A stretch of DNA of 64,000 bases, from contig JAQUOD010000002.1 in NCBI GenBank assembly GCA_028717245.1, forward strand, positions 204,772 to 268,771, read 5' to 3'. The stretch comes from Candidatus Omnitrophota bacterium. GTDB taxonomy: Bacteria > Omnitrophota > Gorgyraeia > Gygaellales > Profunditerraquicolaceae. The stretch's first letter is position 1; each line of letters starts with the position of its first letter. A program made the translations under genes and the position numbers. This document shows, in pieces, positions 15,565 to 61,260 of the stretch. Below the pieces are notes generated by a model. That model saw nothing but the letters and a program-made list of their open reading frames with translations, searched no databases and was not told where the DNA came from.

Positions 15565-15906
15565 ATGGAGGACCGCAGGGTGTTCGCCCGGATAAATACC
15601 AGTTTTCCTGTAAGATTCTTAGACCCCACTCGCGGGATAGAGGGCCGGGCAGAGACGGTGGACATTAGCGCTAATGGCTTGGGTTTAGTTACTCAAGAAA
15701 ACTTATCGTCCAGGACGCCTTTAGAGATTTGGTTGGACATTCCTGACCAACATGAGCCGCTGTATACCCGGGGGAATGTGGTCTGGTCACAGGCCTCTTC
15801 CGATGCAGGGCAGCAGCGCGTAGGCATACGTTTGGAAAAAGCCGAACTCATGGGCCTGGCGCGCGTATTATGGATGCGGAAACAAGCAGAGGATAGGTTT
15901 AATTGA
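15565..15906 (+). CDS. single PilZ-domain protein, paralog of the C-terminal half of the upstream tandem PilZ protein
   Basis: RVFARI ... DISANGLGL motif. Roughly half the residues are identical to residues 130-229 of the upstream protein. RBS GGAAGGAGAG. Confidence 0.7.
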   Translation: MEDRRVFARINTSFPVRFLDPTRGIEGRAETVDISANGLGLVTQENLSSRTPLEIWLDIPDQHEPLYTRGNVVWSQASSDAGQQRVGIRLEKAELMGLARVLWMRKQAEDRFN

Positions 15907-15914
15907 GTTTGTTA

Positions 15915-17249
15915 ATGAAAAGGATTTGTTGCGCGTTTTTATTTGTTTTTTGTTCTTTTTTATGCCTCGCCGGTTGCGTGCCGCAGCAGTCGGATAAATA
16001 CCAAACCACCTTGACTGTCTGGCATTGGATGACCGACAGAGAAGAAGCCTTCCAGGAGTTGGCCAAAAGATATGAGGCTTCTTCCGGCGTAAAAGTAAAT
16101 TTTGAACTCTACGCGCCATCGGATGCCTACGCGCAGAAGGTGCGCGCTGCTGCCCAGGGGCAAAACCTTCCTGATATTTTTGGCGTGCTGGGCGAGACGC
16201 GGGATTTCGCGTCCTTTATAAAGGCGGGCCATGTCTTGGGCCTGACCTCCTATATGGATGCAGACAGCGCTAAATGGCGTAATACTTTTTTCAGTAAGGC
16301 CCTGGCAGTAAACGGATTCTCCGACGGTAACAGCTACGGCATCAAACCCGGCATTTACGGCGTACCCATAGATATTATGACCATCCAGATGGTCTATAAC
16401 AAGGATTTATTCAAGAAATTAGGGCTTAACCCCAATGCGCCTCCGGAAACTTTTGCGCAATTCCTGGAGATAGGAAAAAAGATATCCGCCACAAATCGTG
16501 GCGGATCGGGCGGAAAAGAGGCAAAGATGCAGGGCCTGGTTTCCGGGTGGGGAGAGATATGGATGATAGATTGTTTAGCAAACAATTACGCTTTTAATAT
16601 CATGGGCGAGGACAAGGTATTGGCCACCATAAAAGGTGAGATTCCCTATACCGATCCCGATTGGGTCAGGGTATTAACGCTTTTTAAGGAGATGCAGGAT
16701 TCGGGGGTTTTATATAACGGATTGGTGACCATGGCCAATAAGAACGCGGAGCAGTTATTTGCTAACGGAAGGGCGGTCTTTGCCTTTAACGGTTCATGGT
16801 GCGTAAATGTATATAAGTCCATGAATCCGCGCCTGGATTACGCCGCAATGCTCCTGCCAAAGGCCTCGGAAAAATTTCCGGTGAGTATCTGGGGAGGCGC
16901 CGGTTCTTCATTTATGGTAAGCGCTAAATCAAAAAATAAAGAAGAGGCAGTAAATTTTTTAAAATGGCTTACTGACCGCAGCCAACAGGCATATTTAGCG
17001 CAAACTACTTCCAACCCCCCGGCAAATAAAGAGGCGTTAAGTGAGATTCCTCCTGTCCTGGCGCAGTTTGCCGATGATATGGAGTACGCCACGCATCCGA
17101 ATACTTGGGGCGTATCCGAGTCACCCCAGGTTATAGAAACCTTTAATAGAGGGATACAGTCAATAATTATCGGCGAGAAGAGCCCCGAACAGGTAGCGCA
17201 GGAAACGCAGAAGATTAAAGAAAAAGAATTAGCAAAAAAGAAACGATGA
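15915..17249 (+). CDS. ABC transporter substrate-binding lipoprotein, carbohydrate (family 1 SBP)
   Basis: Lipobox LAGC after a hydrophobic signal; overall extracellular solute-binding protein pattern. ATG 15915 is preferred over the TTG at 15903 reported by the ORF track. Confidence 0.7.
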   Translation: MKRICCAFLFVFCSFLCLAGCVPQQSDKYQTTLTVWHWMTDREEAFQELAKRYEASSGVKVNFELYAPSDAYAQKVRAAAQGQNLPDIFGVLGETRDFASFIKAGHVLGLTSYMDADSAKWRNTFFSKALAVNGFSDGNSYGIKPGIYGVPIDIMTIQMVYNKDLFKKLGLNPNAPPETFAQFLEIGKKISATNRGGSGGKEAKMQGLVSGWGEIWMIDCLANNYAFNIMGEDKVLATIKGEIPYTDPDWVRVLTLFKEMQDSGVLYNGLVTMANKNAEQLFANGRAVFAFNGSWCVNVYKSMNPRLDYAAMLLPKASEKFPVSIWGGAGSSFMVSAKSKNKEEAVNFLKWLTDRSQQAYLAQTTSNPPANKEALSEIPPVLAQFADDMEYATHPNTWGVSESPQVIETFNRGIQSIIIGEKSPEQVAQETQKIKEKELAKKKR

Positions 17250-17276
17250 TTTCGTTATTGGGTTACTTGCGTTTTT

Positions 17277-17327
17277 GCGTTATAGCGTTCGAACGCAATA
17301 ACGCTATAACCCTATAACGCTATAACG
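17277..17327 (+). promoter_or_regulatory. 28-bp imperfect palindrome centred on GCGTTCGAACGC, plus three CTATAAC(G) direct repeats, between the SBP and permease genes
   Basis: GCGTTATAGCGTTCGAACGCAATAACGC is self-complementary except for one position per arm. It is followed by GCTATAAC CCTATAAC GCTATAAC immediately before the ATG at 17328. Confidence 0.4.
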
Positions 17328-18208: not shown

Positions 18209-18315
18209 TCGCACCTGGTGCGAAACTGAGATTGTACCGTTTCTGAATTTAAGCTTGTACCTGGTACCCGATTGGTTTCGCAGACGGTATAAGATTGGAT
18301 CTGCACCTGGTGCCA
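18209..18315. repeat. degenerate composite copy of REP family A (GCACCWGGTGC palindromes)
   Basis: GCACCTGGTGCGAAACTGAGATTGTACC, then GTACCTGGTACCCGATTGGTTTCGCA, then GCACCTGGTGCC. It matches the other family A copies with substitutions. Confidence 0.55.
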
Positions 18316-20799: not shown

Positions 20800-23145
20800 A
20801 TGATAAGTTCAGTTTTAAGCTATAAGCTATCAGTTTTAAGCAAGAAAAAAAATATTTTGTTTCTTTTGTTGCTGTTTCTTACAGCTTACAGCTTACAGCT
20901 TACAGCTTACAGTTGTTTTGCTGAAGAGCTAAGTAACCCTTCTTCCGGCGAGCTCATCGTCAAGGCCTGGGAGGCGCACGGTAAAAGAGACACAGAGGCG
21001 ACTTTTAGATATACGCAGGAGTGTATTGATTTATATAAAGGAGAAGCCGATAAACAACAGGCAGCCTTAGGGGCGCTTCCTAAGAATAAAGAAGAAATCG
21101 GGCAGGTAGCGGTTTTAAATGACGTAGCCACCGCTTATTTTATTCAGGCAGAAAGCCTGATGCGCCAGGAAAAGATTGGAGAAGCCAAGAAGATTTTTCA
21201 ATTAATTATTGATAAATATTCTTATGCCCAGGCGTGGGATCAGCGCGGCTGGTACTGGCAGGTCGCGCAGGCAGCAGGCCAGAGCATAAAGAAGATAGAG
21301 ATCGGCTCCATTGAGATAGATAAAAAAATCAAAATAAGCCAAATCTCTACTACTATAACCCTATACGATACGGGTAAGGAAGACTTCGTAGATTACGCCA
21401 AATACGGCGAGTTTAAAAATATCGGGACAAAGGATTACGCCTATGTAATAAAAGACCAGGAAGGTTTGAGCCAAGCAGTAGGCGAAGGCATCTATCCGAA
21501 TACTAGTTCAGTCAGGTGGGACCCGGAATTTAAAAAGGCGCGCGAGGAAAAAAGGCTGGAAGGCAACCACTGGGATTTTTTGCATTCCCCGGATTTGGAA
21601 GCTGCTTTTTTAAAATGGGCCACTACTTCTGAGCCGATGGGGATAAAGTTATTTTATACCGGCATTATCTTAGAAAAGGCAGGCCTGATAAAACACGCCA
21701 TTAAATGCTATTATGCTATTGTGGTGCATTTTCCGGGCAGTACCGGCTGGACTTATTGGCATACGCCCTGGTCAGTGGGGCAGGCGGCAATCTCCAAAAT
21801 AAATTTTCTCCTGCGCACCCAATCCAATTTAGGCTATAAGCTTGTGGATGCGGATATCCGCATCATTAACGGATACGATAATGATATCTCTAACGATATC
21901 GTGATTACCAATCCGGGCAGGTTTGAAAAGGTCAATTTTTTAGAGAAATTCAAACCCAAAACATTGCCCGCAGGGGCAAAGAATATCAAGCGGCGCCTGG
22001 GAGAAGGCAAAGTGCACCTGGTCCAATATGAAAACGGAGACTGGCAGCTTATGGTGAATAATAAGCCCTATATAATTAAAGGTATTACCTACGCCCCGAC
22101 AAAAGTAGGCGAGTCTCCCGATGAAGGGACAATGACCAACTGGATGGAAGACGATTTTAACCAAAACGGCAAAATCGACGGGCCTTATGACGCCTTTGTG
22201 GACAAAAACAGGAATAACCTGCAGGATGCAAATGAGCCGAGCGTCGGAGATTTTTATCTCATGAAGGAAATGGGTGTAAATACTATCCGGCTCTACCAGC
22301 AGCCTTTTAAGGTAAATAAAGAGCTGCTGCGTGAACTTTATCAGAATTACGGTATTATGGTGATTATGGGAGATTTTTTAGGTAAATATGCCTTAGGTTC
22401 CGGGGCGAGCTGGTATCCGGGTACGGATTATAATAACGAAGAACACAGAAAAAATATGTTGGAATCCGTCATCAAGATGGTTTTGGAATTTAAGGATGAA
22501 CCATACGTTCTGTTCTGGTTATTAGGTAATGAGAATGTCTATGGGTTTGCCTGTAATGCCAATACCGAGCCGGATGCCTTTTTTAAATTTGCCAATGAAG
22601 TAGCCAAACAAATCAAGGCGATTGACCCTGAGCATCCGGTAGCTATCTGTAGCGGCGATACCTTATTTTTAGATAAATTCGGCAAGAATTCATGCGATAT
22701 TGATATCTTCGGCACCAATGCCTACCGGGGCGAATATGGTTTTGGTTTTATCTGGAAACAGGTAAAAGAAGAGGCGGATAAAGCGGTATTTATTACGGAA
22801 TTCGGCTGCCCGGCTCATGCTGAGAGTAAAGCCTTAGACAAAGCGGAATTTTTGCAGGCGCGATATCATCAGGGGGCCTGGGGCGATATAGAGCATAATA
22901 TGGCCTTTCAGCATGGCGCGGGAAATGCCTTAGGTGGCGTAGTCTTTGAATGGCTGGATGAATGGTGGAAGGCCTATGAGCCTTTTTTGCATGATACCAA
23001 AGGCCTCTTCACCGGCCCTTTTCCCGACGGATTTATGCATGAGGAGTGGCTGGGTTTGAGCGGCCAGGGCGACGGCAAGCTAAGCCCGTTCTTGCGGCAG
23101 TTACGCCAGTCATATTATACGTATAAGAAATTATGGAGGCGATAG
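20800..23145 (+). CDS. secreted clan GH-A (TIM-barrel) glycoside hydrolase-like protein with an N-terminal helical/TPR-like region
   Basis: Signal peptide. LLGNENVYG (NE acid/base) and FITEFGCP (nucleophile) occur at the spacing typical of GH2/GH5-type retaining hydrolases. Paralogous to 24489..25748. Confidence 0.55.
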   Translation: MISSVLSYKLSVLSKKKNILFLLLLFLTAYSLQLTAYSCFAEELSNPSSGELIVKAWEAHGKRDTEATFRYTQECIDLYKGEADKQQAALGALPKNKEEIGQVAVLNDVATAYFIQAESLMRQEKIGEAKKIFQLIIDKYSYAQAWDQRGWYWQVAQAAGQSIKKIEIGSIEIDKKIKISQISTTITLYDTGKEDFVDYAKYGEFKNIGTKDYAYVIKDQEGLSQAVGEGIYPNTSSVRWDPEFKKAREEKRLEGNHWDFLHSPDLEAAFLKWATTSEPMGIKLFYTGIILEKAGLIKHAIKCYYAIVVHFPGSTGWTYWHTPWSVGQAAISKINFLLRTQSNLGYKLVDADIRIINGYDNDISNDIVITNPGRFEKVNFLEKFKPKTLPAGAKNIKRRLGEGKVHLVQYENGDWQLMVNNKPYIIKGITYAPTKVGESPDEGTMTNWMEDDFNQNGKIDGPYDAFVDKNRNNLQDANEPSVGDFYLMKEMGVNTIRLYQQPFKVNKELLRELYQNYGIMVIMGDFLGKYALGSGASWYPGTDYNNEEHRKNMLESVIKMVLEFKDEPYVLFWLLGNENVYGFACNANTEPDAFFKFANEVAKQIKAIDPEHPVAICSGDTLFLDKFGKNSCDIDIFGTNAYRGEYGFGFIWKQVKEEADKAVFITEFGCPAHAESKALDKAEFLQARYHQGAWGDIEHNMAFQHGAGNALGGVVFEWLDEWWKAYEPFLHDTKGLFTGPFPDGFMHEEWLGLSGQGDGKLSPFLRQLRQSYYTYKKLWRR
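20878..20912 (+). repeat. perfect (CTTACAG)x5 heptanucleotide tract inside the signal-peptide coding region
   Basis: Five exact 7-nt units at 20878-20912, encoding LTAYSLQLTAYS. Confidence 0.9.
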
Positions 23146-23174: not shown

Positions 23175-23233
23175 AAGGGACAGGTACAATCTTAATTCCG
23201 CACCAGGTGCCCGATTAGATTTGCACCTGGTGT
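23175..23233 (+). repeat. REP family A copy (A2)
   Basis: AAGGGACAGGTACAATCTTA..GCACCAGGTGCCCGATTAGATTTGCACCTGGTG; an internal hairpin is formed by GCACCAGGTGC / GCACCTGGTGC. Confidence 0.8.
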
Positions 23234-23262
23234 AAACAAAAAATAAAGAGGAGGTGTGGGAG

Positions 23263-24402
23263 ATGAAGAAGTTATTAGTAGTATTATTGGCGTTGGCGCT
23301 CTTGGTTCCTGCTTGCATTTACGCAGAAGAGCAACTTAAAGAATTTGTGGTTTACAGCGATAAAAGTTCCAGGGATAACCATTATATTCCCGCAGGCTGG
23401 ATAGGCGACTATGGCGACATCAAGATAAACGACCAGGCCGCGGCCAATCCGCATTCGGGCAATACCTGTATCCAGTTCGTTTATACGGCCAAGAAATCTC
23501 AAGGCCAGGGTTGGGCAGGCATTTACTGGCAGAATCCCGCGAACAACTGGGGAGGCAAAAAGGGCGGTTTTGATTTGACCGGGATGACTAAGCTCACCTT
23601 TTGGGCGCGCGGGGAAAAGGGCGGTGAGATCATCCAGAAGTTTGTCGTAGGCGGCATCAAAGGTACATATCCGGATTCAACAGTCGTGGAAATGGGCCCT
23701 GTTGAGCTTACGGATACCTGGACAGAATACACCATCAATCTGGCCGGCCGCGACTTATCTTATCTTAACGGCGGTTTCAGCTGGGTGACTACCGCGGATT
23801 TAAACCCTAATGGCATGACCTTCTACCTTGATGATATAAAATTTTCGGCAGATACCTCTATGAAACCCGAAGCTAGGAAACAGGATAATATGCCTTTCTA
23901 TGTCTACGCCGACAGGGGTTCCATAAATAATCACTTCGTCCCTTCTGGATGGGTAGGCGATTATGGCGACTTAAGATACGATAATGCCTCTAAAGAAGAC
24001 CCTTACTTAGGCGATACCTGCGTAAAGATAATTTATTCAGGCAAGGCCACTCAGGGCGCGCGCTGGGCAGGTATATACTGGCAGAATCCCGCCAACAACT
24101 GGGGGACAGTGGATGCAGGTTATGACCTTTCCCGCGCTACCAAGCTTACCTTTTGGGCACGCGGAGAAAAAGGCGGCGAGAGGATAGAAGAATTTAAGTT
24201 AGGCGGTATAATGGGAGAGTTTTCCGATTCAGATACTGCTGTGATCGGGCCTGTGATCCTGGATAAAACCTGGACCCAATATACCATTGACTTAAAGGGC
24301 AAGGATATGTCTTACATCATCGGCGGTTTCTGCTGGTCAACAAATGTTGACGTTAACCCCGAAGGTGCTACTTTCTATTTAGACGAGATTAAGTACGAAT
24401 AA
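23263..24402 (+). CDS. secreted protein made of two ~185-aa internal repeats (beta-sandwich CBM-like modules)
   Basis: Signal peptide. Each repeat carries GWxGDYGD ... WAGIYWQNPANNWG ... KLTFWARGEKGG ... FYLD(D/E)IK(F/Y). ATG 23263 with RBS AAGAGGAGG is preferred over the GTG at 23254. Confidence 0.5.
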   Translation: MKKLLVVLLALALLVPACIYAEEQLKEFVVYSDKSSRDNHYIPAGWIGDYGDIKINDQAAANPHSGNTCIQFVYTAKKSQGQGWAGIYWQNPANNWGGKKGGFDLTGMTKLTFWARGEKGGEIIQKFVVGGIKGTYPDSTVVEMGPVELTDTWTEYTINLAGRDLSYLNGGFSWVTTADLNPNGMTFYLDDIKFSADTSMKPEARKQDNMPFYVYADRGSINNHFVPSGWVGDYGDLRYDNASKEDPYLGDTCVKIIYSGKATQGARWAGIYWQNPANNWGTVDAGYDLSRATKLTFWARGEKGGERIEEFKLGGIMGEFSDSDTAVIGPVILDKTWTQYTIDLKGKDMSYIIGGFCWSTNVDVNPEGATFYLDEIKYE

Positions 24403-24407
24403 AACCC

Positions 24408-24484
24408 TAGGGACGGTTCTCAAGCCAAAGCAAGAAGTGTCCCCATAAGGGGACACTTCTCCGATTGGACTAAGAACCGTCCCT
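24408..24484. repeat. REP family B doublet (B1): ~77-bp long palindrome
   Basis: TAGGGACGGTTCTCAAGCCAAAGCAAGAAGTGTCCCC-ATAA-GGGGACACTTCTCCGATTGGACTAAGAACCGTCCCT; arms of about 36 bp. Confidence 0.8.
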
Positions 24485-25787: not shown

Positions 25788-27410
25788 ATGAGAAAAATAA
25801 AATATAAACTTATCAAAGCATTTTTGATATTTATTTTTGCTTACAGCTTACAGCTTACAGCTTACAGCTTATTCGCCCAGGACGCCGATAAAACAGCCGC
25901 GCTTATGCAACAGATTATTGAAGTGAAAACAAACACGGATTTATACGCGCCCTTTGAGGAATTAAAGAACTTATATTTTCAAGAGAATAAATATTCGGAA
26001 TTTATAGAATCCTTAGGCCCTTTACTTACGAAAAAAGAGGCCTCAGCGCCCTTCGTAAATTATTACACTGCCTTAAGCCGCTATTCCCAGCTTAAATATT
26101 TGGAAGAGACACAGAACTGGGACGAATATTTTAATAAAGGTAATACCTATAGGGATGAACTCAACTTAGGCCTGCAGAATACAATCGCTTCTACGAACGC
26201 TAAAGAAGCCTTGAATCTTTATGCTAAGCTTCTCTTGTGGCAGTTCCATAAGGACCAGCAGGATGTTTTTGCGGATGCCGCATTTACTGACTTATTGAAT
26301 ACCGCCTCGGAGTATGCCAAAGATACGCAAAACCCCAAGCCCATAAAAGATGTTGCGGATAAACTTTTAGCCTACGCGGAAAAAAACGAATCCAGGCAGT
26401 TGTACCGGCTTTATGTAGAGAAGTTAATCGCTTCGGTTAAGGAAGACAAGGAATTGGAGAATATTGCCTTAGGATTTTATCAGGAAGGTAATTTAGAGTT
26501 ATCCGAGGCCCTTTTTGATGCTTATATAGAGCGTATCAGTAAAGAATCTCCAAAAGATAGGGTCCTGTTGGCGCTGATAGATATTGCCCGGAAATTTTCC
26601 TATCGGGAGGATGGGACAAAAGATGCCGCTTACGCCGAGAAGATATTTGCCAAGATCGAGGAGATAGGCAAAAAGGATGCCTTTAGTGAAGAGCTGAAGT
26701 ATCTACGCGCTTTCAATGCGCAGACATTAAAGGAATACGCAAAGGCAAAAGATTTTTATCTGGATTTGCTGCAGCGTTATCCTAAGAGCGCTTATGCTGA
26801 TGAGGCGAATCTCAAGGCGGGCATTATCTCTACCTATATATTAAGGGATATAAAAGCAGGCAGGGATTATTTTAGCATATTGGTGCAGAAGGAGCCATTA
26901 GCCCCGGGGGGCATCTTGAGTTTATACCAATTAGGATTACTTAGCCAGTGGGAGAATGATTTAGAAAAGGCCAAGGGTTATTATCGTCAACTGCTTGAGA
27001 AAGCAGGCGAGAATTTCCCTGAGACCACGGCATTGGCTAGGGAGAGGCTGAAAGAGATAGAAGAGGCAAAGCCGTTGGAATATAATCTTAAGACGTTCTT
27101 AGACCTTTCCTTAAAAGACGAATATAAAATTTTCGATATGACCAAGCTGGATTTAAAGGCATCTTTGGCTAAAGCCAGGAAAGGCCAAGGCATAAACTTC
27201 AGCACTAGCACTTATGCTGGCGAAAGCGGCTGCATGCAGGTAGAAATACAATATCTCTGGTCAGGCGAGCTCGGGGCGACACAACCTGCTACGCAGGAGC
27301 AGGCATTTGATACTGCCTACAACCAGGCCGGCACTAAAATCATAAGTTTAGTCGTAGCTTCTCCTTCAGGCATTATAGACAGAGGCATCGTAATACTAGA
27401 CATCGATTAG
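25788..27410 (+). CDS. secreted TPR-repeat protein
   Basis: Signal peptide followed by helical repeat composition. Confidence 0.55.
   Translation: MRKIKYKLIKAFLIFIFAYSLQLTAYSLFAQDADKTAALMQQIIEVKTNTDLYAPFEELKNLYFQENKYSEFIESLGPLLTKKEASAPFVNYYTALSRYSQLKYLEETQNWDEYFNKGNTYRDELNLGLQNTIASTNAKEALNLYAKLLLWQFHKDQQDVFADAAFTDLLNTASEYAKDTQNPKPIKDVADKLLAYAEKNESRQLYRLYVEKLIASVKEDKELENIALGFYQEGNLELSEALFDAYIERISKESPKDRVLLALIDIARKFSYREDGTKDAAYAEKIFAKIEEIGKKDAFSEELKYLRAFNAQTLKEYAKAKDFYLDLLQRYPKSAYADEANLKAGIISTYILRDIKAGRDYFSILVQKEPLAPGGILSLYQLGLLSQWENDLEKAKGYYRQLLEKAGENFPETTALARERLKEIEEAKPLEYNLKTFLDLSLKDEYKIFDMTKLDLKASLAKARKGQGINFSTSTYAGESGCMQVEIQYLWSGELGATQPATQEQAFDTAYNQAGTKIISLVVASPSGIIDRGIVILDID
25840..25867 (+). 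repeat. perfect (CTTACAG)x4 heptanucleotide tract inside the signal-peptide coding region
   Basis: Four exact units plus a partial CTTA, encoding AYSLQLTAYSL. Same repeat as at 20878. Confidence 0.9.
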
Positions 27411-28080
27411 CACCAGGTGCAAATCTAATCGGGCACCTGGTGCGGAATCAATCTTGTACCTGTCCCTCCCGGATTAAAGAAGAAATAATTGATTGAGAAT
27501 CCCGTCATCCTTACCTAATACCCGTGCATTATAGCTATTCCACGGATATTCCGAAAGTTGTTTTACCAAACCCGCTTTTAATGGATTTAATTCTATATAG
27601 TTTATACATTCGATTAAATAGTTATCTTTAGTGATAATCATACTTTTGAATCTACCTTGCCAGAGATGGCCGACTTCCTCATATTTATTATTAAAATAGA
27701 GGGTGTAGGCCCTATTTAAATCGTGCATAAAACTAGATAGCAATAAATGGTCATCCATTTCGCCGAGTAGATGTACGTGGTTAGGCATGAGACAATAAGC
27801 ATATGCCCGGAAATTATGTTTTCGCTTGAATTTCTTTAAAAGTGAAAGATAAAAAAGATGATCCTCCCGGCATTTAAAGACTTCCCGTTTTTGGTTGCCC
27901 CTTGTTATTAAGTGATAGCAGGCATTTTTTATCAAAAGCCTCTTTACGTTACTCATTCCAATCACCTCCTTCTATTATAATAGACGCAGAGATACCGGTT
28001 TTCTAACAGAAAAATTATAAAAGGGACAGGTACAATCTTAAATTCGCACCAGGTGCCCGATTGAAATCGCACCAGGTGCG
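27409..28080 (-). mobile_element. RAYT-REP unit 1: RAYT gene bracketed by inverted REP family A copies (A3 27409-27466, A4 28021-28080)
   Basis: The reverse complement of A4 aligns with A3 (TCGGGCACCTGGTGCG.AAT..A..TTGTACCTGTCCCT). The RAYT sits between them. Confidence 0.8.
27474..27956 (-). CDS. REP-associated tyrosine transposase (RAYT; IS200/IS605-like Y1 HUH transposase fold)
   Basis: CYHLITRGNQ ... CLMPNHVHLL (HUH) ... GHLWQGRFKS ... YIELNPLKAG (catalytic Tyr + NP). ATG at 27956 with RBS GGAGGTGAT is preferred over the GTG at 27965. Confidence 0.85.
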   Translation of the reverse strand: MSNVKRLLIKNACYHLITRGNQKREVFKCREDHLFYLSLLKKFKRKHNFRAYAYCLMPNHVHLLGEMDDHLLLSSFMHDLNRAYTLYFNNKYEEVGHLWQGRFKSMIITKDNYLIECINYIELNPLKAGLVKQLSEYPWNSYNARVLGKDDGILNQLFLL

Positions 28081-28093
28081 ATAATTCTTTCCT

Positions 28094-34083: not shown

Positions 34084-35367
34084 ATGAAGAAAATATTATA
34101 TATTGTTCTCGACGGCCTCGGCGATCTCCCGATTAAGGAGTTGGACAACAAGACCCCGCTTGAGGCGGCCTTAACGCCTAACCTTGACCGACTCACTCAA
34201 AAAGGCAGGACTGGGATTGTCTATCCGGTCGCCAAAGGCATTGCCCCGGAATCGGATATCGCGGTAATCAGCCTTTTGGGCTATGATGCCCGTAAATATT
34301 ATACAGGCAGGGGCCCCTTGGAGGCCTTTGCCGAGGGTTTAAGCATACAGGATGGCAATCTGGCGCTAAGGGTAAATTTCGCTACTGCCGCAGAAGACGG
34401 TAAAACCATCAAGGACCGACGGGTAGGGAGGAATTTGACTACAGAGGAGGCTACCAGTTTAGCTAAAGAGATAAATTCTAAAGTTACTCTATCCAGCGCT
34501 ACCTTTGAATTCAAGAATACCATCGGCCACCGGGGGATTTTAGTCATCAGGGGCGTTCGTTCTAAATTATCCGGATGGATTACCAATACTGACCCGGCAT
34601 ATGAGCGCGAGGGGGTATTCGGCATAGCCAAAGAAAAATTTGAAAATCTTGTCGCAGAGTCTCTTCCTATGCCGGGCTATGAAAATGTAAGCGAGGCAAA
34701 GGAAGCAGCCGCGTTGTTAAATGAATTTACGCAGAAATCTCACCCGGTGCTTAACGAATCGGGAGTGAATAAAAAAAGGATCTCCGAGAATAAACTCCCG
34801 GCCAATATCATATTATCCCGTGATGCCGGCGACCACCTTCCGCAATTCCCCAAGATAGAAGGCCTTTATAATATAAAATTCGGCTCTTTTGTGCAGATGC
34901 CGGTAGAAAAAGGCATTGCCCTTTTAACCGGAATAGAGGTGATAGATGTGCCTTCATCTAGCGGACACTTGGATGTGGATTATCCGGTCTGGGCTAAAGT
35001 AGCGCTGGATTCCATCAAAAAATATGGAGGTATCTACGTCCACATCAAGGGCCCTGATGAGCCGGCACACGACGGAGATTTTCAGAAAAAGAAAGAAATC
35101 ATCGAGGCAATCGATAAATTTTTCTTCGCTAATTTATTACCCAAGTTAGATATGGCCAACACGATTATCGCCGTTACCGCCGACCATTCTACTGTTTGTG
35201 CTATCAAGGCCCATTCCAGCGACCCTGTGCCGCTACTAATTTGCGGGGGCAATATCCCTGCCGATGGCAGCTTGAGTTTCTCGGAGAAGACAGCCCGGCT
35301 TGGTTCCATAGGGGAACTACGCGGCCAGGAAATTATACCCCTCCTTGTAAAATTCGCTCAAACTTAA
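34084..35367 (+). CDS. apgM: cofactor-independent phosphoglycerate mutase, archaeal type
   Basis: N-terminal VLDGLGD metal-binding motif and the overall aPGAM layout. Confidence 0.7.
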   Translation: MKKILYIVLDGLGDLPIKELDNKTPLEAALTPNLDRLTQKGRTGIVYPVAKGIAPESDIAVISLLGYDARKYYTGRGPLEAFAEGLSIQDGNLALRVNFATAAEDGKTIKDRRVGRNLTTEEATSLAKEINSKVTLSSATFEFKNTIGHRGILVIRGVRSKLSGWITNTDPAYEREGVFGIAKEKFENLVAESLPMPGYENVSEAKEAAALLNEFTQKSHPVLNESGVNKKRISENKLPANIILSRDAGDHLPQFPKIEGLYNIKFGSFVQMPVEKGIALLTGIEVIDVPSSSGHLDVDYPVWAKVALDSIKKYGGIYVHIKGPDEPAHDGDFQKKKEIIEAIDKFFFANLLPKLDMANTIIAVTADHSTVCAIKAHSSDPVPLLICGGNIPADGSLSFSEKTARLGSIGELRGQEIIPLLVKFAQT

Positions 35368-35369
35368 TC

Positions 35370-35989
35370 AGGGACGGTTCTCAAACTAACCTAAAAGTGT
35401 CCCCCTCCCGCAGAGATATTGTCTAGAGAAGAGGAATATCGTCTAAAAACAGACTATTTTTTAGCCTAAAAACATAGCTGCTCCAGCGATATCCGTTTAT
35501 GTTTGCAGTTATAGACGCCCTCAAAGGATTAGTTTCTATATAGTTTATACATGCTAAAAAATAACCATCTTTATGTATAATTTTACTTTTATATCTGTCC
35601 TGCCAGAGATGACCAACTGTTTTATATCTGTAATTGAAATATAAGGTATAGCTCAAATTTAAGCCACGCATAATCTTATTTAATAGGAACGGATTTTCAA
35701 CCTCGATAATAAGATGCACGTGGTTAGGCATTAAACAAAAACAATATAGTTTAAATTTATATCGTCTTTTGTATTTAATTAATATGTTTAAGTATTTTTC
35801 GTAATCTTGAGGGTTCCTAAAAACCGATTGTTTTTGATTACCCCTTGTGATAATATGATAACAGCTATTCTCTATAGTTATTCTTGCTGTTCGTGGCATA
35901 TTTCTCACCTCCCAATATAATAGACGCATAAAGTATAAATTTCTAACATAAAAAGGGGACACTTTTAACCGCAATTGAGAACCGTCCCT
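35370..35989 (-). mobile_element. RAYT-REP unit 2: RAYT gene bracketed by inverted REP family B half-elements (35370-35405 and 35955-35989)
   Basis: The reverse complement of the right arm, AGGGACGGTTCTCAATTGCGGTTAAAAGTGTCCCC, matches the left arm AGGGACGGTTCTCAAACTAACCTAAAAGTGTCCCC. Confidence 0.8.
35423..35899 (-). CDS. REP-associated tyrosine transposase (RAYT), second paralog
   Basis: CYHIITRGNQ ... CLMPNHVHLI ... GHLWQDRYKS ... YIETNPLRA. ATG at 35899 with RBS GGGAGGTGAG. The longer ORF-track start at 35974 would read through the REP arm. Confidence 0.85.
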   Translation of the reverse strand: MPRTARITIENSCYHIITRGNQKQSVFRNPQDYEKYLNILIKYKRRYKFKLYCFCLMPNHVHLIIEVENPFLLNKIMRGLNLSYTLYFNYRYKTVGHLWQDRYKSKIIHKDGYFLACINYIETNPLRASITANINGYRWSSYVFRLKNSLFLDDIPLL

Positions 35990-35997
35990 AATAGAAA

Positions 35998-37896
35998 ATG
36001 GATAATTATGACGTCATCGTTATCGGTGCAGGGCACGCGGGCATAGAAGCAGCCTTAGCTTGCGCACGCATGGGCGCTAAGACGCTGATTTTAACCTTAA
36101 AGCGCGATACCATAGGCCTGATGAGCTGTAATCCCGCTATCGGCGGCGTGGGCAAGGGCCAGCTGGTGAAAGAAGCCGATGCCTTGGGCGCAGAGATGGC
36201 CAAGGCAGCTGATGCCTGCGGGATACAGTTTCGCATACTCAATGCCTCTAAAGGCGCGGCAGTGCAGTCATCGCGCGCGCAGATAGACCGCAATAAATAT
36301 AAGCAGTATATGCAAAAGTTGCTCCAGGGCCAGGAGAATCTTTTTATAAAGGAGGCGGAGGCGAGCAGTTTAATCGTGGAGGGTAATTTTGTAAGAGGAG
36401 TACTCACGAATAAGAATGAAGAGATTAATTCTTCTACTGTGATTATTTGTCCGGGGACTTTTTTGGACGGTTTAATACACATAGGCCTGAATCATTTTAG
36501 CGCAGGCAGGATTGATGAGCCCGCGGCATCCGGCTTGGCAAAAAACTTAAAAGAATTAGGGTTTAATTTACTCAGGTTCAAGACCGGCACCTGCCCGCGT
36601 TTAGATAAAAACACCATAAATTTTTCTCAATTAACCGTTCAGCAAGGCGATAGCCCGGCGCGCCCCTTTTCTTTTTCTACTAAAGAAATAACCCAAAGAC
36701 AGATCCCCTGCCACATCACTTACACCAATAATAATACCCATAAGATTATCCGGGATAATCTGGATGAGTCTCCTCTATATACCGGCATAATTAAAGCTAC
36801 AGGCGTAAGGTACTGCCCGTCAATTGAAGATAAGGTGGTTAAATTCAGCGATAAGCAGAGGCACCAGGTATTTTTAGAACCGGAAGGTTATGAAAGCGAT
36901 GAAGTCTACCCCAATGGTTTAGCCACGAGCCTGCCTGAGGAAGCGCAGCTTAAGATTTTACATTCCATAGGGGGTTTAGAAAATGTCAGAGTAATTAAGT
37001 TCGGCTATGGCATAGAGCATACGGTAGTTGAGCCCACGCAACTTTATCCTACCCTAGAAACAAAGTTGATTAAGAACCTGTATCTTGCCGGACAGATAAA
37101 CGGCACTACCGGTTACGAAGAAGCCGCAGCCCAGGGGTTGGTAGCGGGTATAAATGCTGCTTTGCGGGTAAAAAATAAAGAGCCGCTGATTTTAGACCGT
37201 GCCTCAAGTTATATCGGGGTATTAATTGACGATTTGACTACCAAAGGCACAAACGAGCCCTATCGGATGTTTACCTCGCGCGTAGAATACCGCCTCATTT
37301 TACGCGAAGACAACGCGGATTTACGCCTGAGGAAGACAGGCTATGATTTAGGCCTGGTGAGTAAGGCGGATTACGAAAAATCCCAGGAGAAAGAGCAGGC
37401 TATAAAGCAGGCGGTTAATTTATTAAAGACGCATTACCTTAAGCCTACGCCGCAGGTTAATAACCGTCTTGCGGATTTAAAGACTTCGCCTATAAGAAAG
37501 GTAGTCAGCCTGGAGGAAATTTTAAAAAGGCCAGAGATAAGTTTCAAGGACTTAGAGGGTCTTGATGGGATGGGGCTGGATATCCAGGAATCTGCTTTGC
37601 GTCAGGCAGAAATAGAGGTAAAATATGCTGGGTTTATCCAGAGGCAATTAAGTGAGGTAGAGCGCTTTAAGAACCTTGAGAAGATAAGAATACCCCGGGA
37701 TTTAGATTATGGTAATATTTGCGGCCTTTCGCGGGAGATAAAAGAAAAGTTGCATAATCTTAAACCGATTAACCTGGGTCAGGCCTCGCGGATTTCCGGA
37801 GTAACCCCGGTAGCCATTTCCCTTTTGATGGTATATTTGAAAAAGATCAGCCTACGCCTGCCTAGGGCTAAAGCCCGGGGTTTGCCAAATGTATAA
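35998..37896 (+). CDS. mnmG: tRNA uridine 5-carboxymethylaminomethyl modification enzyme
   Basis: N-terminal FAD fold YDVIVIGAGHAGIEAALACARMG and the overall GidA layout. Confidence 0.85.
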   Translation: MDNYDVIVIGAGHAGIEAALACARMGAKTLILTLKRDTIGLMSCNPAIGGVGKGQLVKEADALGAEMAKAADACGIQFRILNASKGAAVQSSRAQIDRNKYKQYMQKLLQGQENLFIKEAEASSLIVEGNFVRGVLTNKNEEINSSTVIICPGTFLDGLIHIGLNHFSAGRIDEPAASGLAKNLKELGFNLLRFKTGTCPRLDKNTINFSQLTVQQGDSPARPFSFSTKEITQRQIPCHITYTNNNTHKIIRDNLDESPLYTGIIKATGVRYCPSIEDKVVKFSDKQRHQVFLEPEGYESDEVYPNGLATSLPEEAQLKILHSIGGLENVRVIKFGYGIEHTVVEPTQLYPTLETKLIKNLYLAGQINGTTGYEEAAAQGLVAGINAALRVKNKEPLILDRASSYIGVLIDDLTTKGTNEPYRMFTSRVEYRLILREDNADLRLRKTGYDLGLVSKADYEKSQEKEQAIKQAVNLLKTHYLKPTPQVNNRLADLKTSPIRKVVSLEEILKRPEISFKDLEGLDGMGLDIQESALRQAEIEVKYAGFIQRQLSEVERFKNLEKIRIPRDLDYGNICGLSREIKEKLHNLKPINLGQASRISGVTPVAISLLMVYLKKISLRLPRAKARGLPNV

Positions 37897-44814: not shown

Positions 44815-44940
44815 GGCGTAAAGTGTAAAGCGCCTGCCTGCCGGCAGGCAGGAAAAGCGTAGAACTAAAACGCAAAGTTTAAAACATTTTTAAGTTTTAC
44901 ACTTCAACTTTACGCCTTGCGCTTTGAGTTTTACGTTAAA
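44815..44940. repeat. structured spacer between the two pstB copies: perfect 21-bp palindrome GCCTGCCTGCCGGCAGGCAGG flanked by ~23-bp imperfect inverted repeats
   Basis: Palindrome at 44842-44862. GGCGTAAAGTGTAAAGCGC at 44816-44834 pairs with GTTTTACACTTCAACTTTACGCC at 44895-44917. Confidence 0.7.
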
Positions 44941-47554: not shown

Positions 47555-48223
47555 ATGAAAGAGATAAGAAATATACTAGGTTGGTTAGGCATGGCAGAGG
47601 AACAGTCCATATTACTGGATGCCCAGAAGCACGTTGAAGAAACTTACAAGACCGTGGCGTATTTCTCCGACGCGGTTGAGGCTTTTATCCAGGGGGATTT
47701 AGCCGCTAAGGCAAAAGCCATAGAGAGCGTCAGGGAGAGTGAGCATCAGGCAGATATATTAAGGTCAAAGATGGTGGATGAACTTTCCGAAGGGCTCCTG
47801 CTTCCGCCGGATAGGGAAGACCTGATGCATTTCGTCAAAGGCCTGGATAAAATTGCCGACTGGACCAACGGCGCAGCCAGGATCCTGGGGTTCATTGAGC
47901 AGAAACTACCGGAAAATATCTTAGGCAATATCTCCTCAGCCACAGCGTTAATCTTTGCTTCCATCTCCAAACTAAAAGAGGCTATTCAGTCTATCAGCAA
48001 GAATGATCTGAAGAAGGCGCTTGAAGATTGCCAGGCTGTGGACCACATTGAACATGACGCTGATGACCAGAAAAAGCTCCTCATTGAGACAATCATCCAT
48101 GCCAAGCTTGAGCCGGCTACGCTTTTATTGTGCTACCAGTTAGCCGAATACTTAGAAGGGGTAACGGATAAAATAGAAGACGCAGCGGATTTCATCAAGG
48201 TCTTGGCCATTAAGTCAAAATAA
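47555..48223 (+). CDS. Pit accessory protein (DUF47 / PhoU-like, TIGR00153 family)
   Basis: Immediately downstream of pit with a 2-bp gap; PhoU-like helical repeats. Confidence 0.65.
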   Translation: MKEIRNILGWLGMAEEQSILLDAQKHVEETYKTVAYFSDAVEAFIQGDLAAKAKAIESVRESEHQADILRSKMVDELSEGLLLPPDREDLMHFVKGLDKIADWTNGAARILGFIEQKLPENILGNISSATALIFASISKLKEAIQSISKNDLKKALEDCQAVDHIEHDADDQKKLLIETIIHAKLEPATLLLCYQLAEYLEGVTDKIEDAADFIKVLAIKSK

Positions 48224-48225
48224 GA

Positions 48226-48303
48226 TAGGGACGGTTCTTTAAGCCAAAGCAAGAAGTGCCCCTTTTTAGGGACACTTCTCCGATTGTATTGAGAACCGTC
48301 CCT
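48226..48303. repeat. REP family B doublet (B2): ~78-bp long palindrome
   Basis: TAGGGACGGTTCTTTAAGCCAAAGCAAGAAGTGCCCC-TTTTTA-GGGACACTTCTCCGATTGTATTGAGAACCGTCCCT. It shares GCCAAAGCAAGAAGTG and GACACTTCTCCGATTG with B1. Confidence 0.8.
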
Positions 48304-59846: not shown

Positions 59847-60095
59847 ATGGCAGGCGGAAAATCAACGCCCAAGAAAGATAAGGCGCTTAAGGTATCCGGA
59901 GGAAAAATAGTCAAGACAGGCGAAATCCTGGCCAGGGGAATTAATACTTATAAGGCAGGCCAGAACGTCAGGGGAAGGGGTACACTTTTTGCCCTCTGCC
60001 CGGGGAAAATTCATTTTACGAAAAAAAAGACCAGTCACGGCAGGCCCCGGACCTTTATCAATATCATGCCGGTTAACGAAAAATCCGTTAAATAG
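59847..60095 (+). CDS. rpmA: 50S ribosomal protein L27
   Basis: G.IL.R.G......G.NV..G.TLFAL..G.I.F pattern matches the L27 core. RBS AGGAGG. Confidence 0.55.
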   Translation: MAGGKSTPKKDKALKVSGGKIVKTGEILARGINTYKAGQNVRGRGTLFALCPGKIHFTKKKTSHGRPRTFINIMPVNEKSVK

Positions 60096-60097
60096 AC

Positions 60098-61222
60098 GTG
60101 TCCGGCCCAGGTGATGATAATCTTTTAAATAAGGCCAAGAGATATTCTTCCCTCAAGTATAGCCTGGCCCTTTTGGATATAGTTTATGTTATCGCGCTAC
60201 TTTTAATATTTTTAGGGCTGGGCATATCCAAGGGCCTGGCAGAGACGCTCAGCAATTTTACTCAGAGTCAATATATCGTCGTCCCGCTCTTTATCCTCAT
60301 AGTCTCACTTGCCTATTATCTGCTTAGCTTTCCTTTAAATTTTTATTCCTCGTATATACTGGAACATAAATTTTCCCTCTCCCGGCAGAAATTAGGGGAT
60401 TGGTTCCTGGATCAGGCCAAGGCAGGCATTATTTCTTATCTCATCGGCCTCATCTTTATTTCTGTATTGTATTATGTATTGAAGTGTTATGTCTTTAGCT
60501 GGTGGTGGATTATTTCTTTTATCTGGATATTCTTCAGCCTGATTTTAGCCAGGCTTACGCCTGTTGTGATTATACCTTTATTTTTCAAATATAAGAAACT
60601 CTCAGACGATAATCTCCGGCAGCGGATTCTACGCCTGGCAGATAAGATGAGAATCAGAGGGCTTGATGTCTTTGAGATAGACTTCAGTAAAAAAACGCAA
60701 AAAGCAAATGCTGCTTTTGTCGGAGTCGGCAGGACAAAACGGGTGATATTGGCGGATACGTTAAGGGATAAATATAGCCCTGATGAAATTGAGGTTATCC
60801 TGGCGCATGAATTCGCGCATTACAGGTTAAGGCACCTGCTTAAGCTTATTCTGGTCAGTTCTTTAGCTACGCTGCTGACATTTTATTTTATATTTAAAAC
60901 CAGTAATTATCTCCTGGGCCTGTTTGGTTTATCTTCCTTATTGGATATTGCGGCACTGCCGGTTATTTTTCTCTATTGGATTATATTCGGGATAATCACG
61001 CAGCCCTTGAATAACTATATCAGCCGCAGATTAGAAAGGAATGCGGATGCCCTGGCGTTAGAAACGACCGGATTAAAAGAGGCCTTTATTTCTACTATGG
61101 ATAAACTCTGTGAACAGAATCTTGCCGATAGAAAACCCCACCCGCTGATCAAGTTTTTTTTCTTTGACCACCCGCCCATCGATGAACGCATAACTCTTGC
61201 AAAGGGACAGGTACAATCTTAG
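60098..61222 (+). CDS. polytopic membrane zinc metalloprotease (HExxH; M48/M56-like)
   Basis: ILAHEFAHYRLRH zincin motif after multiple TM segments. The last six codons and the stop are contributed by REP copy A5. Confidence 0.5.
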   Translation: MSGPGDDNLLNKAKRYSSLKYSLALLDIVYVIALLLIFLGLGISKGLAETLSNFTQSQYIVVPLFILIVSLAYYLLSFPLNFYSSYILEHKFSLSRQKLGDWFLDQAKAGIISYLIGLIFISVLYYVLKCYVFSWWWIISFIWIFFSLILARLTPVVIIPLFFKYKKLSDDNLRQRILRLADKMRIRGLDVFEIDFSKKTQKANAAFVGVGRTKRVILADTLRDKYSPDEIEVILAHEFAHYRLRHLLKLILVSSLATLLTFYFIFKTSNYLLGLFGLSSLLDIAALPVIFLYWIIFGIITQPLNNYISRRLERNADALALETTGLKEAFISTMDKLCEQNLADRKPHPLIKFFFFDHPPIDERITLAKGQVQS

Positions 61223-61260
61223 TTTTGCACCAGGTGCCCGATTGGATTTGCACCAGGTGC
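61202..61260 (+). repeat. REP family A copy (A5) between convergent genes; overlaps the 3' end of the M48-like gene
   Basis: AAGGGACAGGTACAATCTTAGTTTTGCACCAGGTGCCCGATTGGATTTGCACCAGGTGC. The TAG at 61220-61222 inside the element terminates the upstream gene. Confidence 0.8.

Follow-up and report, generated by a model that had tools for sequence, protein, structure and literature searches.

Several REP-associated tyrosine transposases (RAYTs) can occur in one genome, each flanked by its own repetitive extragenic palindromic (REP) sequence, and inverted REP doublets, termed REPINs, are described as well (Bertels & Rainey 2011, PMC3116915); single-copy, vertically inherited RAYTs are also known (Bertels et al. 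2017, PMC5581495). RAYT-like genes with GGGGWSAS inverted repeats are called TIRYTs or TIRtrons; their repeats form moderately abundant families, partly as dimers, and several TIRYT genes with different terminal inverted repeats (TIRs) are present in one genome in S. maltophilia and K. versatilis (Di Nocera et al. 2013, PMC3733652). TIRYT is equivalent to TnpA-Y1 subclass 2.1, or Bertels Group 1 (Quentin et al. 2018, PMC6006769); proteins of this subclass carry a C-terminal helix-turn-helix (HTH) extension and have a median length of 238 aa, and no REP-like structures were found beside their genes (PMC6006769). Here we compare with these systems a locus in a 64,000-nt stretch of a Candidatus Omnitrophota contig (JAQUOD010000002.1; the whole stretch is hereafter the window), which encodes two RAYTs, RAYT-1 and RAYT-2, and we focus on RAYT-2 and its surroundings at 35370-35989. 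We conclude that RAYT-2 is very probably a "domesticated" Y1/HUH tyrosine transposase homologue, present in single copy, inherited vertically and situated between the ends of its own repeat family, referred to as family B. The literature we searched describes no RAYT-repeat system in Omnitrophota and offers only incidental co-mention.

The RAYT-2 cassette comprises an open reading frame (ORF), its leader and two repeat arms:

35370..35405, plus strand: family-B arm on the 3′ side of RAYT-2, with outer box AGGGACGGTTCTCAA, an 8-nt variable linker and inner box AAAAGTGTCCCC
35423..35899, minus strand: RAYT-2 ORF, 158 aa, with the HUH motif NHVH (H60, H62) and the catalytic-tyrosine motif Y120-IETNP
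35906..35912, minus strand: Shine-Dalgarno sequence GGAGGTG of RAYT-2
35920..35947, minus strand: promoter-like leader motif of RAYT-2, GTTAGAAA-N13-CGTCTAT, followed by TATA and ending 16 nt from the ATG
35955..35989, minus strand: family-B arm on the 5′ side of RAYT-2, inverted relative to the arm at 35370-35405

Read on the plus strand, positions 35370-35404 form the arm AGGGACGGTTCTCAA-ACTAACCT-AAAAGTGTCCCC, which is followed by the minus-strand RAYT-2 ORF, and positions 35955-35989 form the inverted arm GGGGACACTTTT-AACCGCAA-TTGAGAACCGTCCCT. The preliminary description of this DNA had RAYT-2 bracketed by inverted half-elements, and the repeat finder returned two such inverted pairs, one of 18 nt (35367-35384/35975-35992, 94% complementary) and one of 13 nt (35392-35404/35955-35967, 100% complementary). 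The cassette takes up the whole intergenic space between apgM (a phosphoglycerate-mutase-like ORF of 427 aa, 34084..35367) and mnmG (35998..37896), starting 2 nt past the apgM stop codon and ending 8 nt short of the mnmG ATG. RAYT-1 and RAYT-2 are the only RAYT matches in the 64 kb, with no near-identical copy of either, and the window ORF list holds no tnpB-like ORF adjoining them. A Candidatus Omnitrophota metagenome-assembled genome (MAG) at NCBI encodes a protein 100% identical to RAYT-2. The genes of the window lie mostly on the plus strand and both RAYT genes on the minus strand. No Rfam family matched the window at the gathering threshold, and a tRNA scan of it found none.

Both proteins are RAYT-type Y1/HUH transposase homologues. 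Y1_Tnp is their sole Pfam domain (62 bits for RAYT-1, 68 bits for RAYT-2). On the NCBIfam model REP_Tyr_transpos (NF047646; cut-off 80 bits), RAYT-1 scores 84.2 bits and RAYT-2 74 bits, far better than their 21 and 27 bits on the IS200 model (cut-off 55 bits). The two proteins are 50% identical and have NHVH and WQ in common; the tyrosine motif is YIELNP in RAYT-1 and YIETNP in RAYT-2. In an alignment of 15 sequences, H60 and H62 (NHVH), W99-Q100 and Y120-I-E-x-N-P are invariant. A single-sequence search of the PDB gave no match and a profile was required; built from the same alignment, it matched E. coli TnpA-REP (4ER8) with an E-value of 4.5e-10, compared to 0.008 for ISDra2 TnpA. The AlphaFold (AF2) model of RAYT-2 (pLDDT 87, pTM 0.84) ends shortly past the tyrosine helix, and its best fold match in the PDB is again 4ER8 (TM 0.74/0.71), compared to about 0.55 for the IS608, ISDra2 and IS200 TnpA structures.

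The boxes that flank RAYT-2 recur elsewhere in the window. Allowing up to 3 mismatches, outer box AGGGACGGTTCTCAA matches six times, against 1.1 expected, and none of 100 shuffles reached six. These six matches are the two RAYT-2 flanks and both arms of two inverted doublets of 76-77 nt that contain the same two boxes:

24409..24484, no strand assigned: family-B inverted doublet, REPIN-like, its two arms 4 nt apart, 6 nt past the stop codon of ORF 23254..24402
48227..48303, no strand assigned: family-B inverted doublet, 3 nt past the stop codon of ORF 47555..48223

The preliminary assignment of the RAYT-2 flanks to a palindromic family of about 77 bp, family B, is thus borne out by the doublets at 24409-24484 and 48227-48303. 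Compared to these dispersed copies, the RAYT-2 arms agree at 15/15 positions of the outer box and 11/12 of the inner box, and the linkers do not match. The B arms are imperfect palindromes of 34-36 nt starting with AGGGAC, and we collected 78 distinct ones from about 30 species. Both boxes are kept throughout and the linker is variable, with a bias toward CAAAGC in upstream arms and CAATCG in downstream arms. Because most dispersed doublets combine one arm of each linker type (24409 and 48227 in the window; loci L004, L009 and L029 elsewhere), a B doublet corresponds to both cassette ends placed back to back with no gene between them. Some doublets, as in L016, have CAAAGC linkers in both arms. 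Folded as single-stranded DNA, the two window doublets reach -30.5 and -22.6 kcal/mol (z = -10.9 and -6.8). Dispersed single B arms form imperfect hairpins (-5.4 to -8.3 kcal/mol, z = -1.1 to -3.8) in which GGGAC(G) pairs with GTCCC and TTCT with AGAA around a conserved internal mismatch. Dispersed B doublets also occur in six other loci of the RAYT-2 clade, at about 1 per 43 kb, compared to about 1 per 32 kb in the window. We discarded a match to GGGTACACTTTT at 59978, which falls within coding sequence.

RAYT-1 is flanked by a different repeat, family A:

27410..27466, minus strand: family-A three-box unit on the 3′ side of RAYT-1, GCACCAGGTGC / GCACCTGGTGC / GTACCTGTCCC with 12-nt spacers
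27474..27956, minus strand: RAYT-1 ORF, 160 aa from the annotated ATG, with NHVH and YIELNP
27980..28007, minus strand: RAYT-1 leader motif GTTAGAAA-N13-CGTCTAT, with the Shine-Dalgarno sequence at 27963-27969
28023..28079, plus strand: family-A three-box unit on the 5′ side of RAYT-1
23177..23233, plus strand: dispersed family-A singlet
61204..61260, plus strand: dispersed family-A singlet, overlapping the final codons of ORF 60098..61222
18211..18313, no strand assigned: degenerate composite of family-A boxes

The two RAYT-1 flanks form an inverted pair of 58 nt (27410-27467/28022-28079, 83% complementary) built on GCACCWGGTGC, and each unit is ordered GGGACAGGTAC, 12 nt, GCACCAGGTGC, 12 nt, GCACCWGGTGC. 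Allowing up to 1 mismatch, GCACCAGGTGC has 22 strand-matches against 0.5 expected, located at the RAYT-1 flanks, at 23200 and 61227 and within 18211-18313. Three of the four full copies are in direct orientation and the fourth (27410-27466) is inverted. Dispersed copies of family A are singlets, not doublets; the three dispersed singlets all have the same orientation. A unit is predicted to fold into a perfect 11-bp hairpin with a 12-nt loop and an unpaired GGGAC tail (-10.5 to -13.9 kcal/mol, z of -2.5 to -5.0).

Families A and B share their layout, with boxes of about 11 nt spaced about 12 nt apart, an inner box of the GGGGWSAS type that ends in GTCCC beside the gene, and CCGATT-like linkers; what distinguishes them is the outer box. 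Every good copy, of either family, lies in extragenic DNA or over a gene end. Each RAYT thus has a distinct REP family, as had been proposed: the three-box family A for RAYT-1 and the two-box family B for RAYT-2. The preliminary description allowed that this distinction might collapse once more copies were compared, and across about 80 related loci it instead becomes sharper. An intergenic perfect palindrome at 44833-44852, CCTGCCTGCCGGCAGGCAGG, has a core, GCCTGCCTGCCGGCAGGC, that is also found in the repeats flanking the RAYT of locus L071, and it may be an orphan element of a third repeat family.

To place the two genes among their relatives, we scanned one genome per GTDB species, obtaining 555 stretches that encode relatives, of which 80 were kept. 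Nearly all of the 80 are labelled Omnitrophota or are MAGs labelled Planctomycetales, and each locus has one RAYT. The RAYT-2 clade comprises 27 loci whose RAYTs are 60-77% identical to RAYT-2. Family-B arms of the same kind flank the gene in every one of the 27, reading AGGGACGGTTCT...GTGTCCC on the upstream side and its inverse on the other. The neighbours are likewise constant: mnmG, divergently oriented, lies 89-133 nt upstream in all 27, and the downstream neighbour, at 18-462 nt, is apgM or nrdJ. Over these 27 loci, mean identity to RAYT-2 is 67%, compared to 69.5% for the neighbouring MnmG (r=0.54, p=0.004). Housekeeping proteins of these species are only 62-83% identical, and the 12-nt box is nearly invariant among them. 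The gene mnmG (gidA) often adjoins oriC. We rejected a position of the RAYT-2 slot at the replication origin, as GC skew is positive over all 64 kb without a switch and the genes on both sides lie on the plus strand.

The closest relatives of RAYT-1 are at L044 (71%), L053 (67%), L048 (66%) and L045 (64%), with family-A-like flanks of the form GCACCnnnTGC ... GTACCTGTCCC; L044 is the only locus of this clade with both RAYT-1 neighbours, a ROK-family gene and a gene for a 540-aa TPR protein. Other RAYT clades have other outer boxes (e.g., AGAGACGTCTACC, GTACCGTTTGC and GGGACACCCTT) and keep the layout, with an inner box ending in GTCCC beside the gene and linkers rich in AATCGG/CCGATT. At least six assemblies give two loci from different clades with different flanks (e.g., L010 with L074 and L020 with L047).

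We conclude from these comparisons that RAYT-2 is vertically inherited and that each clade has retained its own repeat, and they make RAYT-1 an anciently diverged paralog of RAYT-2 with its own family A. The duplication is older than the divergence of these species, because closer orthologues (60-77%) elsewhere carry the same repeat type. The RAYT-2 ORF has a GC content of 31% in a genome of 44%, and RAYT ORFs of 30-35% GC lie in genomes of 40-50% GC in every species checked (the window; L001, L003, L004, L010, L013, L044, L045, L048). Because RAYT-2 is syntenic and vertically inherited and yet low in GC throughout, we read the low GC as a lasting property rather than a sign of recent transfer.

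Some observations weigh against this interpretation of the RAYT-2 locus. RAYT-2 falls slightly under the NCBIfam RAYT cut-off (74 vs 80 bits), and its own arms fold poorly alone (z = -0.85 and +0.35). The outer box does not vary among the 78 arms, so covariation lends the arm hairpin no support. The repeats lack the GTAG tag of classical REPs. Finally, only 2 B doublets and 3-4 A units are visible in 64 kb.

Like the described REPIN-RAYT systems (PMC3116915, PMC5581495), the locus has one vertically inherited copy of a Y1 homologue with inverted repeats on either side, and its divergence resembles that of housekeeping genes. Two further likenesses are the dispersed family-B copies, which are inverted doublets with long hairpins, and the presence of more than one RAYT in the genome, each with a separate repeat family. 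The locus differs in belonging to Omnitrophota and not Proteobacteria, in repeats without GTAG, in the singlets of family A and in a low visible density of about one element per 30-40 kb. Of the two families, only B consists of inverted REP pairs with a short spacer and a long hairpin, as REPINs do. A classical REP is an imperfect palindrome of 20-40 nt with GTAG; the palindrome is present here, and GTAG is not. The protein motifs NHVH/WQ/YIE[LT]NP differ from those of the REP-rich Group 2 (DHLH/WE/YIHYNP) and Group 3 (DH[LF]H/YI[VI]ANP; PMC6006769, Table 1) and resemble the NHVH, W[EQ] and YIELNP of subclass 2.1 (same table).

The likeness to TIRYTs/TIRtrons extends to the DNA. GGGGWSAS is present in the flanking repeats, as GGGGACAC in the B inner box at both ends and as aGGGACAG in the A inner box (GGGGACAG in the orthologue at L053), and in both cases the flanking-repeat families are moderately abundant and partly dimers. 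Unlike subclass 2.1, the Omnitrophota proteins are 158-160 aa without the C-terminal HTH extension, and their arms are imperfect palindromes accompanied by REPIN-like doublets. E. coli TnpA-REP (YafM, 4ER8; Messing et al. 2012, PMC3479197) is the best profile and fold match, with HUH and tyrosine residues placed equivalently and a similar monomer size of about 160 aa; it differs in its 16% identity over the structural alignment and in its target, which in E. coli is GTAG plus the REP hairpin. The IS200/IS605 elements IS608 and ISDra2 share the HUH/Y1 fold, structured ends and, presumably, the single-strand DNA chemistry. Their near-identical multicopy state, frequent tnpB, non-inverted subterminal hairpins and horizontal transfer were not seen here. 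We therefore regard the system as RAYT/REPIN-like, with the TIR-associated subtype as its nearest relative; it is a short form, found in a new phylum, and it fits no described subclass fully.

By analogy with relatives such as E. coli TnpA-REP (4ER8), each RAYT would recognise the folded single-stranded form of its own arms, and the HUH/Tyr active site would cut and rejoin them. Such cutting and rejoining could maintain or mobilise the repeat family in trans, and the doublets in particular may be mobilised in this way.

The two RAYT genes also share an upstream leader. When the DNA of the two loci is aligned, identity reaches 67% for the leader, compared to 58% for the ORF and 31-37% for the repeat flanks. 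The alignment reads GTCCC ... TTTTTnTGTTAGAAA - N12 - TGCGTCTATTATA ... GGAGGTG ... ATG, and a second junction common to both loci, CGGGAGGG, lies past both stop codons. The sequence GCGTCTATTATA occurs exactly twice in the window, both times on the minus strand (27976-27987 and 35916-35927), 16 and 19 nt before the ATGs, and GGAGGTG follows it in both leaders. The conserved leader noted in the preliminary description is thus real, and the two loci do align there. Its reading as a sign of recent common descent fails, since the motif precedes RAYTs of many clades and unrelated genes.

Before RAYTs of most clades in the phylum, the motif takes the form GTTAGAAA-N13-CGTCTATT with a Shine-Dalgarno sequence. 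At least 16 of the 19 positions of GTTAGAAA-N13-CGTCTATTATA are matched in 45/82 loci and in 0/410 shuffles, with a usual distance of 16 nt to the ATG. The 45 loci are spread over many clades, and other clades have the variant GAAAGAAA-N14-TGTCTATATA. A GTC anchor 20-36 nt before the ATG was found in 65/82 loci. Conservation in these 65 is highest over GTTAGAAA and C-GTC-TATT and lower over the next ATA. With GTC as the anchor, the first C of CGTC is present in 51/65, and the geometry is TGTTAG-N16-CGTC, with no AAC.

The motif is not confined to RAYT genes. In 1.2 Mb of genome loci it also stands before genes for a zf-HC2 protein (L052), an ORF6N protein (L057) and a secreted repeat protein (L052), before a comM-type Mg-chelatase gene directly followed by the RAYT (L074), and before long leaders that run into spoVG (L031, L071). 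At L072 and L074 the RAYT, with its own repeats, lies directly after comM and has no leader motif of its own; the motif in front of comM at L074 suggests a comM-RAYT operon. We then scanned JGI metagenome contigs by the motif alone, using GTTAGAAA-N13-CGTCTAT-N4-10-GGAGG (20 specified bases), and obtained at least 120 stretches with at least 122 matches. The genes downstream, counted among the matches listed, were:

RAYT, 54
SpoVG, 25
RadC, 8
unknown HTH protein of 229-253 aa, 7
ComM, 3
ComEA-like protein (transmembrane segment plus HHH_3), 2
ORF6N, 2
anti-sigma-like, 1
unclassified, 15
at contig ends, 5

Pfam scores were above cut-off for the SpoVG, RadC (with UPF0758_N), HHH_3, Mg_chelatase and ORF6N products. 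For zf-HC2 only the L052 protein exceeded the cut-off (24.4 vs 22.2 bits), and the L178 protein scored 17.4. The 229-253-aa protein (MAKVY..KARNLR..GWS.GEIS...YLCEGA) recurs in the motif-defined set (e.g., L103, L121, L126, L187, L189), and Pfam gives only a weak HTH match for it. Before spoVG or the anti-sigma gene, the leaders from motif to gene span about 90 nt (L071) or 190-220 nt (L031, L207), the longer ones with visible complementary runs; they are located at L031 (minus strand) after 5901, at L071 (plus strand) after 4095 and at L207 3622-3844. Judged from these sequences, the shared leader is best regarded as a promoter plus Shine-Dalgarno sequence and not as a duplication relic.

A lead to the factor that might read this promoter came from a tblastn search of the 1.2 Mb of loci with E. 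coli RpoE and B. subtilis SigW, which found one sigma factor of the extracytoplasmic function (ECF) type, at L052. There, a gene for a sigma-70-family protein of 199 aa is found beside the RAYT in divergent orientation, together with a zf-HC2 gene, and the motif stands directly before the latter. Homologues of the L052 sigma are present in 10 of the 120 motif-fetched metagenome loci listed, in a recurring map of RAYT, motif on the opposite strand, sigma, motif and anti-sigma. At L052 and at 7 motif-selected loci, the motif stands immediately upstream of the anti-sigma gene; the pair at L178, only 29% identical, also has the motif before the anti-sigma gene. The sigma family has 847 members at E<=1e-10, and those with names are mostly labelled Omnitrophota. 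The window contains no homologue of the sigma, anti-sigma, spoVG, radC, comM or comEA queries. In the intergenic region between the genes for H+-pyrophosphatase and the ECF-type sigma, REP/REPIN-like elements occur in four species and a RAYT in two (L052, L201, L203, L204, L205), which makes this region a recurrent landing or retention site.

As a test independent of the motif, we fetched loci for five homologues of the sigma. All five have GTTAGATT-N13-(A/G)CGTCTATTATA at the stop codon of the sigma gene, where it immediately precedes an anti-sigma gene of about 233 aa, with a CHAT-TPR gene next. The sigma gene itself is preceded by TTGAyA-N17-TGnTATAAT, which reads as the ordinary housekeeping promoter of these organisms. 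Because sigma genes of the same organisms carry that promoter, the RAYT leader would represent a different promoter class. One of the five sigmas, P0344, scores 65 bits on NCBIfam TIGR02937 (sigma70-ECF; cut-off 42.9). Its accessions, MDD4979640 and MDD5592041, belong to the same two series as those of the window RAYTs (MDD49800xx and MDD55920xx), and we read this as placing P0344 and both RAYTs in the same two assemblies, the source MAG assemblies to which the protein accessions MDD4980058 and MDD5592094 belong. At the P0344 locus, the sigma gene has a family-A unit upstream, and the 13-mer that the two RAYT leaders have in common, TGCGTCTATTATA, recurs before the anti-sigma gene, whose product has H-x3-C-x2-C.

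We consider it probable that the leader motif belongs to the regulon of this conserved ECF-type sigma, which would also be encoded by the source MAG assemblies. Such a regulon would most likely include spoVG, radC, comM, the comEA-like gene and the sigma's own anti-sigma gene. Known ECF sigma/anti-sigma modules are alike in pairing a small ECF-type sigma with an anti-sigma of the zf-HC2 or H-x3-C-x2-C type. ECF promoters of B. subtilis have CGTC -10 elements, spacers of about 16 nt and typically AAC in the -35 box (PMC5758882); the Omnitrophota motif is alike in the CGTC -10, and its -35 is GTTAGAAA, not AAC. In the CRP-S competence regulon of Pasteurellaceae, radC, comM and comE1/comEA are co-regulated (PMC5809987), and the Omnitrophota set is similarly narrow, with radC, comM and a comEA-like gene. 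It differs from known ECF and competence regulons in that RAYT genes are the largest class among the matches listed, followed by spoVG. Three findings count against this assignment: the anti-sigma of the P0344 locus is under the Pfam zf-HC2 threshold, the motif precedes the anti-sigma gene and not the sigma gene, and the leader -35 box is without the AAC typical of ECF promoters (PMC5758882).

A fourth comes from a consensus scan, which found a sigma-70-like site, TAGAAA-17-TATTAT (9/12), at equivalent positions of both leaders. The shared leader could accordingly be a housekeeping sigma-70 promoter with a Shine-Dalgarno sequence, or an operator bound by the RAYT, with no dedicated sigma regulon; the conserved A at +4 and T at +5/+6 of the motif would fit this. 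However, conservation is centred on CGTCTATT and falls over the 3′ half of the putative -10 hexamer, where the last T is present in 38/65 loci, and the sequence before the sigma genes of the same organisms is a different motif. The motif also precedes a narrow, recurring gene set rather than typical highly expressed genes, and a RAYT operator would not be expected before many genes with no RAYT or repeats nearby. We regard this alternative as unlikely, and a dedicated ECF-type sigma as the better candidate for reading the motif.

We also considered whether the A and B elements serve the host in a structural or regulatory role (e.g., as terminators or mRNA stabilisers) and persist independently of the RAYTs, their association with which would be incidental. 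Both B doublets lie 3-6 nt past the stop codons of plus-strand genes, the hairpins are very stable, and a terminator-like call overlaps the family-A unit at 28066-28082. This explanation is improbable, however: the match between RAYT type and flanking repeat is clade-specific across dozens of species, the difference between left and right arms of the cassette (CAAAGC and CAATCG linkers) recurs within the doublets, and no T-runs follow the doublets. A secondary host role of the elements is compatible with their being, in the first place, the repeats of the RAYTs.

Very improbable, in our estimation, is that the 620-bp cassette (35370-35989) is an autonomous, currently mobile insertion sequence (IS) of the IS200/IS605 type with terminal inverted repeats, and the doublets its miniature inverted-repeat transposable elements. 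The Y1 transposase fold, the position of the gene exactly between inverted arms that fill the intergenic space, the GC content of the ORF (31% vs 44%) and the doublets as two ends without the gene would all suit such an element. Its single copy in the window with none near-identical, the same slot in 27/27 species with divergence matching that of MnmG, the absence of tnpB beside the gene, the low GC common to all orthologues, and a sequence and fold nearer TnpA-REP than IS200 TnpA all argue for a resident, vertically inherited RAYT-2.

There is hardly any room left for RAYT-1 and RAYT-2 as recent duplicates ("recent paralogs" in the preliminary description) with the leader as a duplication remnant and rapidly diverged flanking repeats, because the identical 13-mer, the same Shine-Dalgarno sequence and a leader more similar than the ORF (67% vs 58%) are set against proteins just 50% identical, flanks of 31-37%, orthologues elsewhere that are closer (60-77%) and share the repeat type and, in the RAYT-2 clade, the slot (27/27), and a leader motif found before RAYTs of many clades and non-RAYT genes.

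Apart from these loci, the window contains a giant ORF of 4824 aa (56-14530, plus strand), which fills its first 14.5 kb. Tandem runs of the heptamer CTTACAG at 20866-20921 and 25821-25876 lie inside the 5′ ends of the ORFs that start at 20800 and 25788 and encode LTAYSLQ-type repeats in a putative signal-peptide region. At 17269-17327, near the end of ORF 15903..17249, there are overlapping palindromes and direct repeats of CGTTATAGCGTT / AACGCTATAAC.

The core finding, several RAYTs per genome with private repeat families, is established biology. To call the window a "natural experiment in RAYT-REP co-evolution" is a fair description, and one that has precedents in genomes with several RAYTs and their own repeats (PMC3116915, PMC3733652). 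The form found in the largely uncultured Omnitrophota combines TIR-class motifs and GGGGWSAS repeats with REPIN-like doublets. As RAYT-2 is found in one chromosomal slot across species, it provides a clean case of the long-term vertical persistence of a RAYT-repeat pair.

The leader motif likely represents a new regulatory link for RAYTs, and the literature we searched contains no paper linking RAYTs to sigma factors or competence. If the ECF-type sigma reads the motif as a promoter, RAYTs would be coupled to a competence-like or stress state. More speculatively, and with some doubt, we hypothesize that Omnitrophota RAYTs of nearly all clades are the main members of one ECF-type sigma regulon (with a zf-HC2 anti-sigma gene and then CHAT-TPR), alongside spoVG and the comEA-like gene, comM and radC, which serve DNA uptake and the processing of single strands, and that RAYT action on REP/REPIN elements would be switched on in a competence-like or DNA-damage-like state rich in single-stranded DNA. 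The phylum-wide motif gives a concrete hypothesis for the host role of RAYTs and the timing of their expression; if true, the sigma regulon would be the first physiological context for these "domesticated" transposases.

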